A stretch of 64,000 bases of DNA, taken from contig OX597828.1 of assembly GCA_951406725.2 (NCBI GenBank), positions 64,232,001 through 64,296,000 on the forward strand, read 5' to 3'. Every line of letters starts with the position of its first letter. Within the stretch, counting starts at the first letter, position 1. Made by a program: the position numbers and the translations under genes. The notes beneath the pieces are model-generated. The model saw nothing but the letters and a program-made list of their open reading frames with translations. It was not told the DNA's origin and searched no databases. Shown here piece by piece: positions 1,223 through 49,307 of this stretch. The stretch is from Octopus vulgaris. Taxonomy: Eukaryota.

Positions 1223-1269
1223 ATATATATATATATATGCAGTTGACCATTTAACATACTACTGTCATG

Positions 1270-1569
1270 GAACTCCTACATTCTTCTTCTTCTTCTTCTT
1301 CTCCTCCCCCTCCTCCTCCTCCCCTACCAAGAATTCACAACGACCTCGAACCCACAAGAGTAAACAAGAGAGACAGAGATAGGCAGAAACAAGGAAAATG
1401 CCACTTGTATTTGAACACGATGCAAATATTCTTTTAAAAAAGCTTTTCTTTTAATTTTTCAAAAATTTAATTGTCTTCCATACTTAGAGTTGAAAAAGTC
1501 TCAATGACTGGAACCGGCACTGAAATGTTTTTTATAAAATTATTTTAGTATTTTCTATCTTGACATTTT

Positions 1570-1572
<3 letters not shown>
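1270..1572 (+). mobile_element. Solo pLTR of the Penelope-like family at 41478-44240
   Basis: Near-identical to 43890-44207 (CCCTACCAAGAATTCACAACGACCTCGAACCCACAAGAG...); (TA)n tracts on both sides; HHR-like motif at 1487-1522. Confidence 0.85.
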
Positions 1573-1621
<49 letters not shown>

Positions 1622-1809: not shown

Positions 1810-2251
1810 TATGTTTGACTTTTGCTTTATGTCTGTACAAGTTGGCTCCAAGTCTCACCCAGAGACCTCAAGAGACAACAGGCTGGAAGTTCACGTTGTT
1901 GTTATGAATAGTGTGCCATATATTTGGGGGGTTTTTTGGTGTTGTACTAGTGAATGTCTAATACATAAATTTAAAAAAAAATGTTTGTTTTAAACCTTGG
2001 GATTACATAGAGAGTATTTTGCGTAGGATATGAGCAGTTCCCATGAGCACTATCTTCCATTTTGGGGTTTCCTGGTATCTGAGCTAGGTAGCAATCAGCC
2101 CCTTTCGCTATCATTCCCAGGGCACCTATGACAACAGGTATTGTTTTAGTCTTTAGGTTCCACATTTTGCTGATTTCTATTTCAAAATCTTTATATTTGC
2201 TCAGTTTTTTGTAGGTCTTGACAGATACGTTTATATCGATTGGGACAGTCA

Positions 2252-2252
<1 letters not shown>
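1809..2252 (-). mobile_element. 5'-truncated R4/Dong-type LINE: RLE domain plus 3' UTR, inside (TAA)n
   Basis: KLSKYKDFEIEISKMWNLKTKTIPVVIGALGMI is an RLE C-terminal signature; (TAA/TTA)n flanks at 1721-1808 and 2252-2310. Confidence 0.85.
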
Positions 2253-2296
<44 letters not shown>

Positions 2297-2497
2297 CATT
2301 ATTATTATTGTCGTTGTTGTTGTAGACCGATTCTGTGATAATGAAAAAAAAGTGATGTGTTGACATCAACGATATTTCGTTACTCAAACTTTTAGAATCG
2401 ATATTCTGTACCTGAAGAGAACTTCTTGAAGTGGATGGAAACGTAGCCGTAGAGGTGGAAGAAAGAGATGAAGGAAGGAAAGAAACAAGGAAGGAAG

Positions 2498-2538
<41 letters not shown>

Positions 2539-3723
2539 GAGAGAGGGGGGAGAGAGTGAGAGAGAGTGAGAGAAAGAGAGAGAAATAAAGGAAGATATGA
2601 AATGAAGATAGAAGAGGAAGAAGCGGGTGTGTTTGTTTCGAAAGGTATAAAAATGTTTTTGGTTTTGATGTCCAAGATGAGAGACTTGATACGCGAATGG
2701 ATTGTGTATCAAGTATTAAGAATAAGATGTGGTCGGGGAGGAGTGAGGATGAGTGTGGTATAAGGAGAGTGGGAGTGAAGGTGTTGAGTATGAGGAACTT
2801 GAAGTGTGATGTATTGAGTAGTGTAACTGGAATGTGGAGTGTAAAGAGTAAGGAATGTTAAGTGAGGCGTATTGAGTGGAGTGAGGGAGAGTGTGGTATC
2901 AAAGGGGGGAGAGAGTGTGAGTATAGTGCGTGAAAAAGAATGTGGGTGGGGTGTCTCAAGTAGGACTGACAAGTGAAGTATAGCATGTGAAGTGTGAGGA
3001 GTAATGCGATGAGAGTGGAGCTTAAGAGAGTGGAGTGCAGAGTGTGGGGGTGAAGGTAAAGAGAGTGGGGTCCAGAATATGGTGAGCAAAACTGCTGCAG
3101 ACAGACCTAGCCCTAACGAGAACAGCATGGAACTACGGTGTCTGTGCAACAGGCAGACTTACCAGCATCAAAGGGAAAAAAGGTATTCTGTCGGCCATAG
3201 TTGTTAGTGATATCACTGTAGCAAATAGTTGGATCAAGAGTTGTTATGACGACACCATCACCCTGCTGTTCATTCTGCTGCTACTGCTACTGCTGCTGCT
3301 GCTGCTGCTGAAGACATCCTAGATTCAATGGTACCGTCTAAAAATCTCTCTCTGTGTAGCAGCTATATTCGCATTACATCACCACCATCCCCGTCACCGC
3401 TATCACCTTTACTAACTTCAACAACACTGTCGTCAAAAAGGAGCAGCGAAATGCTAGAAATACTAGTAACAGCTCTCGTAAATAGCTCCATGCAAGGTTT
3501 AAAACAGAAAGATGCCATTGAATGATATATTCTCAAAAATAGTATGTCTGAAATTATATAGATAGCAAAGTCATGGCTGGAACGACTTTGGCCACAAGTT
3601 TGCCTGATTTACTTAGATCGGGTGCAACTCGACGTTCTAAATTCAACAACACAAGAAATCGTACAGAGAAAACGAAGAGGACACGTTGACAACATGCGTG
3701 ACCAGTTATTTCTCTCAGCTCAT

Positions 3724-9366: not shown

Positions 9367-9430
<64 letters not shown>

Positions 9431-9437
<7 letters not shown>

Positions 9438-9785
9438 AGTGAATTGAAGAAATGGAGTTGAACGAAGATTGAACAGAAATCGTTTTATTTCATTCTACAC
9501 GTGTTTCGAAAGGCACAATTTACCAAATTCGGAATTTGGTAAATTGTGCCTTTCGAAACACGCGTAGAATGAAATAAAACGATTTCTGTTCAATCTTCGT
9601 TCAACTCCATTTCTTCAATTCACTAATAATATTAAAATTCAATTATCCGCACCAACGCACGGTTGCAACACCATATGGTTGTACCTCCAACCGTGCTGTC
9701 TTCTGCTGTGATTTTTGCTACCAAGGTATCGGTTAAACTTTTGATTAATCTGCAACAAGATTATTCATCTTTCTATTTCACATAA
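9431..9785 (+). mobile_element. Fold-back element: 100-bp-arm palindrome plus ~150-bp tail, in (TA)n; Penelope-pLTR-like
   Basis: 9431-9530 is the reverse complement of 9532-9631 (one mismatch); carries the 3' half of an HHR (GAAAC-ACGC-GTA); related to 29086-29360. Confidence 0.75.
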
Positions 9786-26425: not shown

Positions 26426-27750
26426 GCCTGCTCGTAGTGCTTTGGCAACGCAACTGTCGGTAACTTTATTCCATGAATTCTTCCCCCAATGCACGACTTC
26501 TTGGAGGTTGAGCTTGACAAAGTTTCCACGCTGATTTTTCTCCATTCTATGTTCGATCTATTTATTCACTTCCATCCGCAAATAATCTTTGAAGGGATTG
26601 TTTATTACAAGATCTAATGTTTGTAGATATGAAGTCATTCCCACGAGAATCATTATGTGGTCAATTCTTCTTTCAGAAAGGAAAGGTTTTCATATCTTTT
26701 GCGCGATGAGCACTGGCCGAATCCCAAACTAAAAGACCCCTTTGAGAACCACTTAAAACAAGTGGTATAGTTAAATCAACCCATTTTCTTATAACAGCTT
26801 GTGTGCACCAAGCCTTTTCCATTTCGAGAACATAAATGCCCGAAACACATTCTATTTTCTCTTTTTTTTTTTACCCTTTGTGATGATAAGCAGTGGGACT
26901 TTTGTTCCGTCCAGACGAACTTCTAAAATACAAGTAACCCTTGAACTTTTATAACCCATTGAGGCAGCGTAGATTGGCGAGGCCCCTGTCTGTTCAATTG
27001 TCGTTTTAGATGCTTGGCCCAGAAATACTGCAGTTTCATCCATAGCAATTATATTGGCGAGATTGTATTTAGAAAAGTCGATGCCATCAACAAAGGACTT
27101 GAATGCAAGTGCAGTTTGAATCACTTCAGCATCCTCCAGCTTGAACAGTGTTGTCGATCTTCTTAGAGAGAGCTCATATCGCCGAAGGAAATTATCCAAC
27201 CAATGAGGTGATGTTTTGAATATCTCTGGGGGTATATCCAACTGAGGTGCCATTGCAAGAGAAAATTCTTGAATATCAGCCCTGCGTACCACTAAAGCTG
27301 TCAGCAATCCATCCCGAGGTGATATCTTCCAGCTCCGAAAATAACGATTGTCGACCTGATCCGCACTTGCGCTTCTTAGCACTTCCCTCATCCACCAGTC
27401 TGCTGAAATTATCGGACTCTGCTCACCATTTTCGAACCATTCGGAGACCCAACATCATCTTCTTACAGAAAACCGGAAGATTCTTGTTATGTGACTCTTT
27501 CACAATTCCTTTCTTGTACTCGACGGAATAACTCTTTCTTTTTGCACTCATCTTGCCTGGGGTGGGCTTAGCGCAGACTTTAGCCAAGCTGCGGTAGTTG
27601 GTTTATTTTTCAAACAGTACATGGTCTTGTTAACAAGGTGATGCATTTTTGACTACGTCTTATTTTCGATGTAGGGTTTATATTAAAAAACATCCTGAAG
27701 AATCATGATAGCGCTAATTTTCGGAGTAGGTCTTATTTTCGGGGAAACAC

Positions 27751-33582: not shown

Positions 33583-33616
<34 letters not shown>

Positions 33617-33626
<10 letters not shown>

Positions 33627-33770
33627 TATTAGAGACAAAACCACTATTTTGCAAAACAAACAAGGAAAGACTTAATCAATACATAAAATTTTAATAAATT
33701 TTATGTATTGATTAAGTCTTTCCTTGTTTGTTTTGCAAAATAGTGGTTTTGTCTCTAATAATATTTTATA
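33617..33770. repeat. Perfect palindrome with 75-bp arms and 4-nt loop, plus ~80-bp tail, in (TA)n
   Basis: 33617-33691 is the reverse complement of 33696-33770. Confidence 0.9.
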
Positions 33771-33848
33771 ATATTTTACTATAAAATTGGATTTAATCCT
33801 AAATCTGATTTTTTCCCTGTAAATTTGGATTTATTCCCTAATATTTAT

Positions 33849-35585: not shown

Positions 35586-35664
<79 letters not shown>

Positions 35665-35669
35665 ATATA

Positions 35670-35793
35670 CAGGGAGATTCAAAAGTCACCATATATAGGA
35701 AAATTAATTTTTTTTATAAGAAACAGTTAAATAAAAAAAACTATTTCCTATAAAAAAATAAATTGTTCTTATGGCAACTTTTGAATCACCCTG
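35670..35793. mobile_element. Tc1/mariner-type MITE
   Basis: TIRs CAGGGAGATTCAAAAGTCACCATA / TATGGCAACTTTTGAATCACCCTG with TA on both sides. Confidence 0.85.
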
Positions 35794-35798
35794 TATAT

Positions 35799-35857
<59 letters not shown>

Positions 35858-38741: not shown

Positions 38742-38916
38742 ATATTTTATTATGTCTGGGGAAAGTCATTTTCTTTTAGTGCCTTATTAATTTAACTCAC
38801 TGATTTCCACTCATTTACTTATTTAGTAAAAATAAATTAATAAATGAGTGGAAATCGGTGTGTTGAATTAGTAAGGCACTAAAAGAGACTGATGCTCCCC
38901 AGACACAATAAAATAT
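38742..38916. repeat. Imperfect ~85-bp-arm inverted repeat; a single arm recurs at ~57945-58028
   Basis: TGTCTGGGG...CTTTTAGTGCCTTA...GATTTCCACTCATTTA versus TAAATGAGTGGAAATC...TAAGGCACTAAAAG...CCCCAGACA. Confidence 0.75.
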
Positions 38917-41423: not shown

Positions 41424-41470
<47 letters not shown>

Positions 41471-41812
41471 TATATATGAAAAAACAAGTCAGGATAGAAA
41501 ATGCTAAAATAATTTTATAAAGAACATTTCAGTACCTGTTTAAGTCATTGAGACCTTTTCAACTGTAATAATTAAATAATTAAATTTAGAAAAATTAAAA
41601 GAAAAGTTGTTTTTTTAAAAGAATATTTGTATAGTGTTCAAATATAAGTGGCATTTTCCTTGTTTCTGCCTTTCTCTGTCTCTCTTATTTACTCTTGTGG
41701 GTTCGAGGTCGTTGTGAATTCTTGGTAGGGAAGAAGAAGGAGGATGAGGAGGGGAAGGGGAGGAAGAAGACGAAGAATTTGGGAGTGCTTTGATATATGA
41801 CTATATGATTAT

Positions 41813-43470
41813 ATGACCCATTTCACAAGTAAAACCAGCCAAGTCTACGGTATTCCCAACATACACAAAAGTGAGAAAATAAGTAACGCATGCAAGATAG
41901 CCACAGACAAAATAATTAAAGTCCCTAATCCTAATGATCTCAAATTGAGACCTATAATAGCAGGTCCCACATGCGAAACCCACCGCCTCTGTAACTTTTT
42001 AGATACCCTCTTAAAACCACTCCTCAAACATGTCAAAAGCTATATCAGGGACGACCTGGATATGCTCAATCACCTGCCTAAAACAATAAACAAAAACACC
42101 CTACTAATATCCTTCGATGTAGTCAACCTCTATTCCAATATCCCCCACAACCTAGGAATAGAGGCAATTCAATTCTGGCTAGAGAATAACGCCAACGAAC
42201 TCCCACATCGCATCAAAAAAAGAATTCGTGAGGTTAAATTCATCCTGGAAAATAACTACTTCGCCTTCAAAGACAACTTCTACCGACAAAAATCGGGGAC
42301 TGCGATGTGTACGCGAATGGCCCCCTCCTTTGCCAACCTAGTCTTGGGATATCTAGAAATCAGTCTGTAACGTAAGGTTCTAGAAAGATATGGCAGCCCT
42401 TTCTCCCTCTACATAGAAAACAACTGGAAGAGATACCTAGATGACTGTTTCATTCTTTGGCATGAAAATATAGAGAAACCCAAAGAATTCCAAGCAATTT
42501 TAAATGGACTGGACATAATCATTCAATTCACGATGGAATATAGCCAGCAACAACTCCCCTTCCTCGACATCCTCATTAAGAAATCTAATAATGTAATAGA
42601 AACAGATATATACTATAAGCCTACGGATTCTAAGCAATATCTTCCTTTCAATTCATGCCACCCCAGACATACCAGAATGAATATCTCCTTCAATCTAGCA
42701 AAAAGGATATGTACTATAGTTTCTAATGCAAACACCAGAGACACACGACTACATGAACTAAAAGATACCCTCATCACCAGGAACTACCCACCTTCACTAA
42801 TTGACATATGCATTCAACTCAACATCCAGGAACTCAGACATCCCAAATTAAAGAAAAAATTACGACCAAAAGCCTTACCATACATTTCCACACACAACCC
42901 TCGCAACAATGAAGCCTTCGACACCATCCTCCAAAACATACCCCTGCTAAAAAAGGACCACAGAATGAACTTAATCCTCCAAAAACACACAAGATCATAA
43001 AAAGCAAGAGACAGCCCAAATCTATGAAAAGTTTCCTAACACAAGCCCGAATACGCTCATCAACACAGAAGCCGACAGTAAAAAATATGGCAGACCCAAT
43101 TGTGGGATATGCGATTATTTAATTGAGGGATCAGAGTTCTCCTTCAAAAGGGACAACGTTTCACAGTGAAAAGCAACTTCACATGTGCTTCGGAGAACCT
43201 GATATACACACTAACCTGCTCTGGGTGTCAAGAGCAATACATAGGCCAAACAAAAAATAGTTTACGTAAAAGAATGGCCCTGCACAGATCCCAGATAAAA
43301 ATTCTCCAAAACAGAAAAATAGCATTCAGCCAACACATAGATATTTGCGCCAACAACAAAACTCTAAACTTCAGGATTTTCCCCCTCTACCAATTCAGGG
43401 ACGATACAAACTGGAACCAATGAATTAGTAAAGAAACTCTCTTTATTACAAAATACAGACCCCTTCTGAA
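41813..43470 (+). pseudogene. Penelope-like RT plus GIY-YIG endonuclease, disrupted
   Basis: YGIPNIHK, LRPIIAG, LLISFDVVNLYSNIP, YRQKSGTAM, WKRYLDDCF, LPFLDILI, TDIYYKPTD, linker PNCGIC, CASENLIYTLTCSGCQEQYIGQT; stops and frameshifts. Confidence 0.92.
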
Positions 43471-44119
43471 CGCATCTACGACAAACGATATATCCACCTC
43501 GGCCTTAGAATAACACAAATACACACGCAAATACTACATTCCTAAGAATCCACTAAAAATCAGCCCCAATCACTGCTATAATCCATAACGTGCCAACTTT
43601 AAGTCATCCAACACCTCACTACTTTCACTCATATTCTCCCTTCTCTTTCTTCATCATCATCATCATCATGATCTTCTTCTTCTTCTTCTTCTTCTTCTTC
43701 TTCTTCTTCTTCTTCTTCTTCTTCTTCTCCCCCTTTTCCTTCCTTCTTCCTAACTTTATCACTAATGCTTTTTAGTATAACACCTACGCAAATTCTATAA
43801 ACAAACTTTCAATAGAAATATTTTCATGAATTGAACAGCAACTGCTAGCCTCCACTGACCATTCAAAATACCACAATCAAGGCACTCCCAAATTCTTCGT
43901 CTTCTTCCTCCCCTTCTCTTCCTCCTCCTCCTCCTCCTCCTCCTCCTTATTCTTCTTCCCTACCAAGAATTCACAACGACCTCGAACCCACAAGAGTAAA
44001 CAAGAGAGACAGAGAAAGGCAGAAACAAGGAAAATGCCACTTATATTTGAACACTATACAAATATTCTTTTAAAAAAACTTTTCATTTAATTTTTCTAAA
44101 TTTAATTATTTAATTGTTA

Positions 44120-44155
44120 CAGTTGAAAAGGTCTCAATGACTGAAACCGGTATTG
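44120..44155 (+). ncRNA. Minimal hammerhead in the pLTR with U3-A8 core variant
   Basis: CAG-TTGAAAA-GGTC-tcaat-GACT-GAAAC-CG-GTA-TTG; copies at 1487-1522 and 41530-41565 (minus). Confidence 0.6.
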
Positions 44156-44250
44156 AAATGTTCTTTATAAAATTATTTTAACATTTTCTATCCTGACTTC
44201 TTTTTTCATATATATCAACTCGTGTGTTCCTTTTCATCCATATACATATG

Positions 44251-47130: not shown

Positions 47131-47217
47131 GTGTAATATATTTACCAATCTACATCCACAAGTATACATGCACATATCACGTATGTATATATCTATCTGT
47201 CTCTCTCTATATATTAT

Positions 47218-47662
47218 ATTAGGGTGAGATGGACAACGAAAACCAATGCAGGACGAGTATTTCAAGTCATATAGAATCATTTAATTAGGGTAACATTGAA
47301 GTCTTACAGTTGTTTCTGAGATATCCCAAGTGATAGGCTAGCATGTCCGTACGCTGGGTATTCCATCATCAGAGTCAAGGTGAGTATGTAAGAAAGTGTA
47401 CGGACATGTTAGCCTATCATTTAGAAATCCCAGAAACAGCTATAACACTCCAAATCTACCCTGATTCTATATGATTTGAGATATTCGTCCTGCCTTGGTT
47501 TTTGTTGTCATTTTCCTCTAATATAAAATATACCTGATAACACAGAAGCCTAATACGGATACCTACCTCCAACCTCAGCTGTGAACTTCGACCAATTATA
47601 GCACTTACTCAGCGTACCTATTAATTTACATTACCAGTGAACTAAACCTCTCATATTCTTTA
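47218..47662. mobile_element. Fold-back pLTR-like element with HHR and 3' tail
   Basis: Diverged arms ~47218-47355 and ~47397-47525; minus-strand CTGATGA-TGG...CA-GAAAC-AACT-GTA-AGAC at 47301-47376; tail resembles 38340-38490. Confidence 0.7.
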
Positions 47663-47665
47663 TAT

Positions 47666-49307
47666 GTTAGTTAGTTAATTTTTTGGCTCAAAAAGCAAAA
47701 TAGCAAGGCCATGTAGGGGGACATGGAGTTATGTACAGGGTGGTGTTCATGTAAAGAGTTCAGGCCACTTGTGGTCAAGGGAGACTTTGAACCGAGCGGT
47801 CGTCAGCATCTTCTCAATCTCGTCCGGCAGCTTAATCCACGGATCCGCAACCCGGACGGAGAAAGCACCTCTCCTTCGATTGAGATGAAATCGTCGCAGA
47901 TAGAGCTTTACGGAATGACCCCGCAGCCGACGCTCTGGAGCAGGAGTGAAGAACAGCTCCTTCGAGAGGTTACACTTTCTGCTTATGATGTTGTGAGCAA
48001 GAATGAGATCACCACGGTGTCGTCGTTTTTCTAGAGAATAAAGGTCGAGCGTCTTCAGCCTTTCTTCATAAGACAAATTCTTGAGACCAAGAACCATGCG
48101 AGTAGCCAGCTTCTGGACTCTTTCGAGATGCTGTATGTCTTTGAGGAGATAAGGAGAAGAGGCTTGAATCCCGTACTCCAATATGGGTCTCACCAGCGTG
48201 ACATAGAGCGGTAGGAATATGGCTGCTGTGAGCATTCCGAATGACCATCGAATCAAGAACAGAACTCCGCGTGCTTTGTTGGCAGCATGGACGCACTGGG
48301 CCGAAGGCGAAAAGGAGGAATCCACCAAGATACCCAGGTCCTTTACCTGATCGGTCCTCTCCAGCAGCAGATGACCCGGCTCGAAATCAAGTTGAGTTGC
48401 AGGAGGAGAGCCAACAGGCAGATGACAGCACTTTGACACGTTCAGACACAGGTCCCATTCGTTAGACCATCTCCAAATTTGGTGGAGGCATCGACGAAGA
48501 TCCTCTGTATCACCGCGAGGAGCGACCAGCTTGACATCGTCGGCAAATAGAAGGGTGTGTTGCGTGAGGTCGTCGGGCAAGTCATTTATGAAGACTAAGA
48601 ACAATAAGGGCCCAAGCACTGAACCTTGAGGCACGCCACTGCTCGCACTGGAGACGTCGGACCGCGAACCATTAACTTGGACTTGGAAGGAGCGATCTGA
48701 GAGGAAGGCACCAACCCATCGTACAATATCCGGATGGAAACTATATGCTTGAAGCTTGACAAGTAATAGGTGGTGGTTTACCGAGTCAAAAGCTTTGGCA
48801 AAGTCCAATAAAACGATGTGAACAGCATCACTATCATCGAGGATGCGCGTCACCAATTCTTCCATTACCAGTAAGTTGGTCAAGCATGATCTCTTCGGCA
48901 CGAAGCCGTGTTGGGAATCAGAGATAGAGGCTGTGTTTTGGAGGTGGAGCATCATACTTTTCTTAAGGATGGTTTCGAACATCTTGCTGATTATTGATGT
49001 AAGGGAAACCGGTCGGTAGTTAAGCGGGTCTTCGCGGCTCCCTTTCTTGAAAATTGGGCAGATTATCGCTGTCTCCAGTCCGCAGGTATAACACCCGTCG
49101 CCAATGACATATTGAATAGACGTGTTAAGGGCTCGCAGATGACCGGAGCCAACGCTTTGATAACCCGTGGGTGTATGCCGTCAGGACCGTGACCCTTGTT
49201 GACATCGAGGCCTTGAATAACGCGTTCGACTTCGTCCCGGGTGATGACCAATCGAAGCATTGGAGGTACCGATCTATCAAATGGAGGGGGTTCACGACCA
49301 TCATCTT
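47666..49307 (-). mobile_element. 5'-truncated young CR1-group LINE with short 3' UTR and (TAAC)n tail
   Basis: Visibly GC-richer than its flanks; GPDGIHPRVIK upstream of one frameshift near 49065; tail TTAACTAACTAAC. Confidence 0.93.
47747..48982 (-). CDS. LINE reverse transcriptase, open frame of 411 aa (N-terminally incomplete)
   Basis: QHGFVPKRSCLTNL, LLDFAKAFDSVNH, SGVPQGSVLGPLLFLVFINDLP, LFADDVKL, RLRGHSVKL. Confidence 0.9.
   Translation of the reverse strand: MFETILKKSMMLHLQNTASISDSQHGFVPKRSCLTNLLVMEELVTRILDDSDAVHIVLLDFAKAFDSVNHHLLLVKLQAYSFHPDIVRWVGAFLSDRSFQVQVNGSRSDVSSASSGVPQGSVLGPLLFLVFINDLPDDLTQHTLLFADDVKLVAPRGDTEDLRRCLHQIWRWSNEWDLCLNVSKCCHLPVGSPPATQLDFEPGHLLLERTDQVKDLGILVDSSFSPSAQCVHAANKARGVLFLIRWSFGMLTAAIFLPLYVTLVRPILEYGIQASSPYLLKDIQHLERVQKLATRMVLGLKNLSYEERLKTLDLYSLEKRRHRGDLILAHNIISRKCNLSKELFFTPAPERRLRGHSVKLYLRRFHLNRRRGAFSVRVADPWIKLPDEIEKMLTTARFKVSLDHKWPELFT

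Follow-up and report, generated by a model that had tools for sequence, protein, structure and literature searches.

A fixed U3-A8 hammerhead in the pseudo-LTRs of a young Penelope-like retrotransposon of Octopus vulgaris, with a likely genomic record of its cutting

The motif at positions 44120 to 44155 of the window, which is the whole stretch of 64,000 nucleotides of Octopus vulgaris DNA that was analysed, is very probably the pseudo-LTR hammerhead of a young, high-copy Penelope-like retrotransposon, in which a U3-A8 core is fixed family-wide; in vivo it likely cleaves transcripts of the element behind GUA, though only a minority of them, and probably does so in dimeric form. It is also likely, at a lower degree of confidence, that the genome keeps a fossil record of this minimal U3-A8 Penelope hammerhead cutting in vivo, the 5'-OH product being ligated, probably by RtcB, to U6 and to the upstream hammerhead products of other families, and then retrotransposed.

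Hammerhead copies in the window

Three copies of the motif are found in the window, each with TTGAAAA in place of CUGANGA, and their remaining lesions differ from copy to copy; on both points reading of the sequence agrees with an earlier note on this DNA, which had proposed that the copies are a functional hammerhead variant. They are named here 1487, 41565 and 44120, and the features to which they belong are the following:

44120..44155, plus strand: type I minimal hammerhead motif with U3-A8, from sequence and fold
44123-44129: U3-A8 core of the 44120 copy (U3 at 44123, A8 at 44128)
44130-44142: stem II of the 44120 copy, followed by GAAA at 44143-44146
44146-44151: self-complementary stem III strand of the 44120 copy
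A44152: base after which the 44120 copy is predicted to be cut
43653..44249, plus strand: 3' UTR and direct pseudo-LTR, which stops within a (TA)n/(CA)n tract, at tail position +97 beyond the predicted cut
41803..43510 (end approximate), plus strand: broken, 5'-truncated frame with RT, CX4CxxC linker and GIY-YIG
41530..41565, minus strand: second hammerhead copy, U3-A8, predicted inactive
41470..41794, minus strand: inverted 5' pseudo-LTR of the same insertion as the 44120 copy, which ends at the +63 position, in (TA)n
1487..1522, plus strand: third hammerhead copy, U3-A8, with A10.1-U11.1, predicted inactive
1244..1580, plus strand: older fragment of a pseudo-LTR, separate from the insertion above but of this family (82% identical), which holds the 1487 motif

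All of the window copies are decayed, and the full core is kept in the 44120 copy only, in which U4 G5 A6 N7 A9, G12 A13 A14, A15.1-U16.1 and H17 are present and C1.1 is replaced by U, forming a G-U wobble. In the 41565 copy U replaces G12 and a C of stem III has become A, while the 1487 copy has A13 changed to G, U16.1 changed to C and one mismatch in stem I.

One 5'-truncated insertion accounts for two of the copies, 41565 as its inverted and 44120 as its direct pseudo-LTR, and they lie around its broken RT-GIY-YIG frame, which is 87% identical to the intact unit of locus L037. The three copies are thus not independent, since two of them flank one decayed element, and they represent two insertions. 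A cis dimer of the 41565 and 44120 copies is rejected because they are on opposite strands. Two broken frames of the window gave no match to Pfam, and in the Rfam search of the whole window the 150 of 340 results listed are microsatellite-driven miRNA matches, with no hammerhead among them.

The window also contains sequences of other kinds. A fragment of a non-LTR retrotransposon, unrelated to the hammerhead, is found on the minus strand at 47747-49180 as an open frame of 477 amino acids (RVT_1, E 3.6e-34). The end of a frame at 1971-2708 (minus strand) is taken by us to resemble the restriction-like endonuclease end of a non-LTR element, and a frame of 200 amino acids at 26852-27454 (minus strand) presumably has likeness to a fragment of a pogo/DDE transposase. 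Long fold-back palindromes are located at 9430-9632, 33612-33774, 35606-35856, 38742-38916 and 47208-47532, the second of which matches the downstream end of a C3-G8 family that is fused to U6 in locus L237.

The U3-A8 core across the genome

Matched exact patterns gave 3,129 genome-wide matches for U3-A8 versus 2 for C3-G8, and the reversed-pattern controls of both searches gave none. A genome-wide consensus of CTGANGA, which had been named beforehand as the result that would speak against the proposed variant, is thus rejected, and the consensus of the family is U3-A8. When positions 3 and 8 were left free, 98 of the first 100 of 736 matches had U3-A8, a Watson-Crick pair as judged from complementarity, and the other two had C3/A8 and U3/G8; the motifs in the best DNA-search matches have U3-A8 in 31/32 cases and U3/G8 in 1/32. 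Positions 3 and 8 form an established Watson-Crick pair in the hammerhead (PMC3884650), which, together with the family consensus, bears out the compensatory swap from C3-G8 to U3-A8 that the earlier note had put forward. Its statement that strict CUGANGA searches miss the variant also stands, as a CTGANGA search with the same stem III class and the GAAAC-SS-GUH end gave 285 matches (282 in the control), compared with 3,129 for this family.

Among 44 copies chosen by DNA or ORF search, each position of U4 G5 A6 N7 A9, G12 A13 A14, A15.1-U16.1 and H17 is conserved in 42-44 copies. The stem II pair 10.1-11.1, judged by eye in the 100 copies listed, is G-C in 66, A-U in 19, G-U in 11 and unpaired in 4, and this covariation corresponds to changes between subfamilies, not to many independent events. 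The family in which U3-A8 is fixed is young and homogeneous, and its frames are intact. Assembled RNA contigs, which cannot show RNA ends or levels, contained no variant of a core position among the 40 matches listed out of 49, from four runs with four organism labels, an observation that is given no weight here.

The Penelope-like element

The protein search scored 150 of 15,743 candidates, and about 37 of these 150 have an open frame of 784-785 amino acids (counted by eye). The tandem arrays that were fetched have units of 4.39-4.43 kb with identical motifs, and the hammerhead, in sense orientation, follows the RT-EN stop at a distance of about 700 nt. In L037 the reverse transcriptase matches RVT_1 with 33.8 bits (cut-off 29.6), and the GIY-YIG domain, at 21.1 bits, is just under its cut-off of 22.6 (E 4e-4), its CCHH residues being read in the sequence. 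The order of RT followed by a C-terminal GIY-YIG with CCHH residues is that of the EN+ Penelope-like elements, and the linker that separates RT from EN, C-x4-C-x2-C, fits the CX2-5CxxC form common to Neptune and Nematis. By the criteria of Craig et al. (2021, PMC8557442), the domains and the linker point to an element of the Neptune or Nematis type, which share with it the RT, the linker, the C-terminal GIY-YIG and the 3' hammerhead, as well as partial tandems, inverted 5' copies, an optional tail of 34 nt and (TA)n targets.

The ends of the insertions are found within (TA)n, at a distance of 63 or 97 nt beyond the predicted cut, and the layout of the pseudo-LTRs, partial tandem or inverted with an optional tail, is the one expected for such elements, in which the tail has 30-40 nt. 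Ordinary copies carry an intact 3' ribozyme, so they were copied from RNA that was uncut at that site. This resembles the PAc Poseidon element of Anolis, in which the reverse transcriptase begins its copy downstream of the hammerhead and works mainly on RNA that has not been cut, although the core of PAc is the canonical C3-G8 (PMC11167929). As nearly all of the octopus insertions came from RNA uncut at the 3' ribozyme, cutting is likely a slow process on which individual jumps need not depend, and it may be dispensable for the element.

Unlike the Neptune and Nematis EN+ elements, for which a single frame is described, the intact octopus unit has two overlapping frames, although the legend of Fig. 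1 of the same source (PMC8557442) allows an ORF1 separated by a frameshift. The frames overlap by 61 nt in L033, L035 and L037; in the intact unit L037:4590-8116, and likewise in L033 and L035, ORF1 has about 411 amino acids and the RT-EN frame lies at -1. ORF1 gave no match to Pfam and no usable match in the atlas. The heptamer U UUU UUA is in phase in 11/13 of the copies seen, 2/13 having one extra T, and no downstream hairpin is predicted at the overlap, which is a candidate site of programmed -1 frameshifting.

Predicted folds and dimeric action

In the predicted monomer of a young copy stems I and II are formed and stem III is open (-9.8 kcal/mol), whereas the predicted homodimer of lowest energy is a double hammerhead joined through ACCGGU (-27.1 versus 2 x -9.8 kcal/mol). 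Stems I and II pair, with a short, self-complementary stem III, in the fold of the young copy, and the predictions are poorer for older copies: in the L011 dimer an alternative pairing is more stable than the hammerhead (-19.8 versus -16.1), and the 44120 copy of the window misfolds in prediction. The Rfam model HH9, which describes a longer form with C3-G8, gives 19.3 bits on 141 nt (E 0.011), below its gathering threshold of 52. Other hammerhead families in the fetched loci, with C3-G8, U3-A8 or U3/G8 cores, have self-complementary stem III strands of 4, 6 or 8 bases, and the folding of the young copy together with these strands in several families suggests that action is probably dimeric.

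A motif that cuts as a monomer, helped by proteins or tertiary contacts, is an unlikely alternative, but it survives better than the others that were weighed. A distance of 4.4 kb separates neighbours on the same strand, the majority of the copies stand alone or in inverted orientation, and stem I can be extended in prediction to about 8 pairs, all of which would suit a monomer. However, stem III of the monomer would consist of one or two pairs over a loop of 2-4 nt and is absent from the predicted fold; its strands are self-complementary in families that differ in sequence and length; and the minimal motifs of Schistosoma cut only as dimers or trimers (PMC4209133). Dimeric cutting is the preferred reading.

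Several other hammerhead families were seen. A second repeat family of 425 candidates has a U3-A8 hammerhead with a stem I of 8-10 bp, often in inverted pairs (L088, minus strand near 1521, L089-L098, L191 and L195), with U3/G8 in L090 and L094. A third family, which has a stem II of 2 bp, is found at L038:1759 (minus strand) and in L254 (minus strand), one copy having U3/G8 and the other U3-A8. A hammerhead-like repeat with C3-G8 has U at position 6 and a palindromic stem III strand of 4 bases (L034:9253 and L041:1690, both on the minus strand, L006, L008 and L127); A6 of the hammerhead is normally conserved. A canonical C3-G8 hammerhead family in tandem arrays of 359-360 bp, which resembles a non-LTR retrozyme, is present among the CTGANGA matches listed, at G000:C1:20002278-20004542 and other places.

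5' junctions at the predicted cut

A first junction search gave 111 matches, from which 40 loci were fetched, and several of the arms begin exactly at the predicted cut; the idea of a record of cutting arose from these starts. A wider search, from -25 to +12, gave 109 matches, of which 100 were listed and classified by script (9 unlisted, 2 merged as duplicates). The 98 distinct matches divide into 49 true junctions, 24 deletions or duplications internal to the copy and 25 copies that read through with indels; 7 of the true junctions, which lie at +11/+12 and adjoin the search anchor, were dropped before the count, leaving 42 in -25..+10. Position 0, the predicted cut, holds 7 of these 42 true 5' junctions, from 100 of the 109 matches (P = 1.5e-4 versus uniform and 2.7e-4 versus simulated chance extension); the 10 nt that precede the cut hold 4 junctions, and the 10 nt that follow it hold 25. 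Among the junctions that had not been seen when the idea arose, 4/15 are at the cut (P = 0.008). In a search admitting (TA)n flanks, judged by eye, about 12-13 of about 60 junctions pile up at +5, more than at any other position, compared with 8 at position 0 and 7 at +1; there is AT microhomology at +5, and this peak demonstrates that the sequence by itself is able to produce one. When the second family was tested in the same way, 1-2 of 14 junctions were placed at the cut, which are too few events to weigh.

Some of these loci have other features. Stem III is deleted between two short flanking repeated words in 8/24 of the internal events (L100, L105, L117, L135, L136, L140, L150 and L177), which is probably slippage during reverse transcription. 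A SINE-like repeat is joined to position 0 in L048 and L144, with break points 5 nt apart, and in L048 the joint is present in both inverted arms. In L139:556-698 (minus strand) the hammerhead is spanned by about 12 A-to-G changes within 85 nt, a pattern that A-to-I editing of the template RNA, ahead of its reverse transcription, would be expected to produce.

U6 fusions and the joint between two hammerheads

Two of the junction loci contain the 3' end of U6 snRNA, identified by Rfam, joined to position 0. A search for U6 3' ends gave 237 matches, of which 100 were listed, 73 being fetched and 27 judged by eye from 27 bases, all continuing into SINE-like sequence. Among 75 ends in 72 fetched loci, the joint of U6 to this family falls at offset 0 and is preceded by five T in 5/5 cases, and no U6 joint elsewhere in the 4.4-kb unit was found among the matches listed. 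The five fusions differ in flanks and in subfamily letters, but three of them share the letters of an old subfamily, so that the independent events number at least two or three.

Joints of a similar kind involve other ribozymes. In L237 U6 is joined at the first four bases past the cut of a C3-G8 family, the subfamily of which differs, and in L255 it is joined directly after a GAAAC-CG-GUA end, the core of which is not recognisable in two siblings. In L051 the 5' part of the hammerhead of the second U3-A8 family, ending in GUC, is joined to position 0 of this family, the joint corresponding to both predicted cuts, within one base of microhomology. The fusions in L227, L241, L251 and L254 look like the ends of other Penelope-like families.

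With regard to U6 itself, most of the listed 3' ends (L203-L272) run within a few bases into the starts of SINE-like repeats, and L212-L218 appear to be a tandem array of U6 genes with a spacing of about 1.1-1.4 kb.

U6 ends in a cyclic phosphate and is joined by RtcB only to a 5'-OH (PMC6789731), and the 3' product of the hammerhead bears a 5'-OH (PMC3884650). The octopus fusions resemble the chimeric U6/LINE-1 pseudogenes of Moldovan et al. (2019, PMC6789731) in having U6 that ends in five T, a sense joint to retroelement RNA and retrotransposition of the product. They differ in that the U6/L1 joints have no preferred site, whereas here 5/5 are on one base, which is the predicted ribozyme cut, and the carrier is Penelope-like. 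The claim of the earlier note that the motif is a functional variant is supported by the 5' junctions and the U6 fusions at the predicted cut, as far as DNA can speak for it.

It is very unlikely that the motif is a dead relic in which U3-A8 is fixed by descent from one master copy and the excess of junctions is due to stalling of the reverse transcriptase at the stem I/II hairpin or to microhomology. The copies do share ancestry, so that the 3,129 matches count as one event; the rise in junctions takes in all of 0..+8, the stretch that forms the 3' strand of the extended stem I; +5 is a microhomology peak; and the ribozyme is dispensable in vitro in Anolis (PMC11167929). Stalling, however, is expected at the edge of the helix (+7/+8) and not at the scissile bond inside it, and a relic would leave unexplained both the 5/5 U6 ends at one base and the L051 joint at two predicted cuts, as well as being at odds with a stem II that covaries across subfamilies. 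Still less probable is a position 0 that is a real RNA 5' end made by transcription start or by a host nuclease, with U6 added by template jumping of the reverse transcriptase: pseudo-LTRs of Penelope-like elements do contain promoters (PMC6765202), host nucleases make 5'-OH ends on L1 RNA (PMC6789731) and DNA alone cannot tell ligation from a template jump, but the end falls on the scissile bond of the hammerhead in this family and in the upstream product of the second family, and approximately also in the U6 fusions L237 and L255, which are unrelated in sequence, while the template jump would not affect the claim of cleavage.

Proposed course of cutting and insertion

In the preferred reading, which is cutting by the hammerhead itself, two motifs would combine into a double hammerhead by base pairing between their ACCGGU strands, which are self-complementary, and the partners could be read-through transcripts of tandem units or two separate transcripts. 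U3-A8 would stand in for C3-G8 in the active core, and a slow cut after GUA would leave a 2',3'-cyclic phosphate and a 5'-OH. The downstream piece with the 5'-OH would sometimes be reverse-copied to its very end and then inserted, or it would first be ligated, likely by RtcB, to U6 or to the upstream product of another ribozyme, and inserted afterwards.

Relation to known hammerheads

The U3-A8 variant, the blind spot of the searches and the idea of a dimer are all already in print. Covariation of C3-G8 to U3-A8 is reported in several natural hammerheads by Perreault et al. (2011, PMC3088659), who cite Przybilski and Hammann (2007) for activity of U3-A8 pairs in vitro; the variants described there are rare examples, while here there are thousands of copies in one retroelement family. 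In the pseudo-LTRs of the Cercyon element of Schistosoma mansoni, which have U3-A8, the first descriptor missed about 1,300 hits (Cervera and de la Pena 2014, PMC4209133). The octopus family is like Cercyon in its type I motif within the pseudo-LTR, its short palindromic helix III, the U3-A8 covariation, the proposed dimer and its many single and opposite-strand copies. It is unlike Cercyon in that U3-A8 is fixed in a young family with intact frames, in the lack of an extra base before stem II and in its Neptune/Nematis-type linker. Cleavage of the minimal hammerheads of Penelope-like elements is low and dimeric according to the same source, whose authors state that they have no evidence in vivo, while the octopus genome has joints at the cut site. 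In Anolis, no RNA-seq reads with a start or an end at the cut of PAc were found by the authors of PMC11167929, and the ribozyme was dispensable there for insertion in vitro.

A literature search for the wording 'C3U/G8A' found nothing. Cercyon is probably of the same lineage as Perere10 of Schistosoma. Perere10 is placed in the Penelope/Poseidon group (PMC3846280), and if Cercyon shares its lineage, U3-A8 arose separately in two clades. A search of the literature, with most subscription papers outside it, found no report of cut-site joints for Penelope-like elements; the genomic record of cutting has no match in the literature searched, and the supplements of the cited papers may list further species with U3-A8.

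Significance

The U3-A8 core matters for annotation only, this family giving about eleven times more matches than the CUGANGA search with the same stem III class. The hammerhead is likely active; its variant type is known, while the family that carries it is new, and the genomic record of its cutting is more interesting than the core, which is ordinary. What is at stake is whether, in the Penelope-like elements of animals, hammerheads as weak as these do any cutting in cells, and the base-exact U6 fusions and the 5' starts at the scissile bond would constitute a readout of cleavage taken from DNA only. If this reading is true, U6 fusions map the cut sites of ribozymes to the base in a genome sequence, and the exchange of pieces between ribozymes by cutting and religation would be a route to new chimeric elements.
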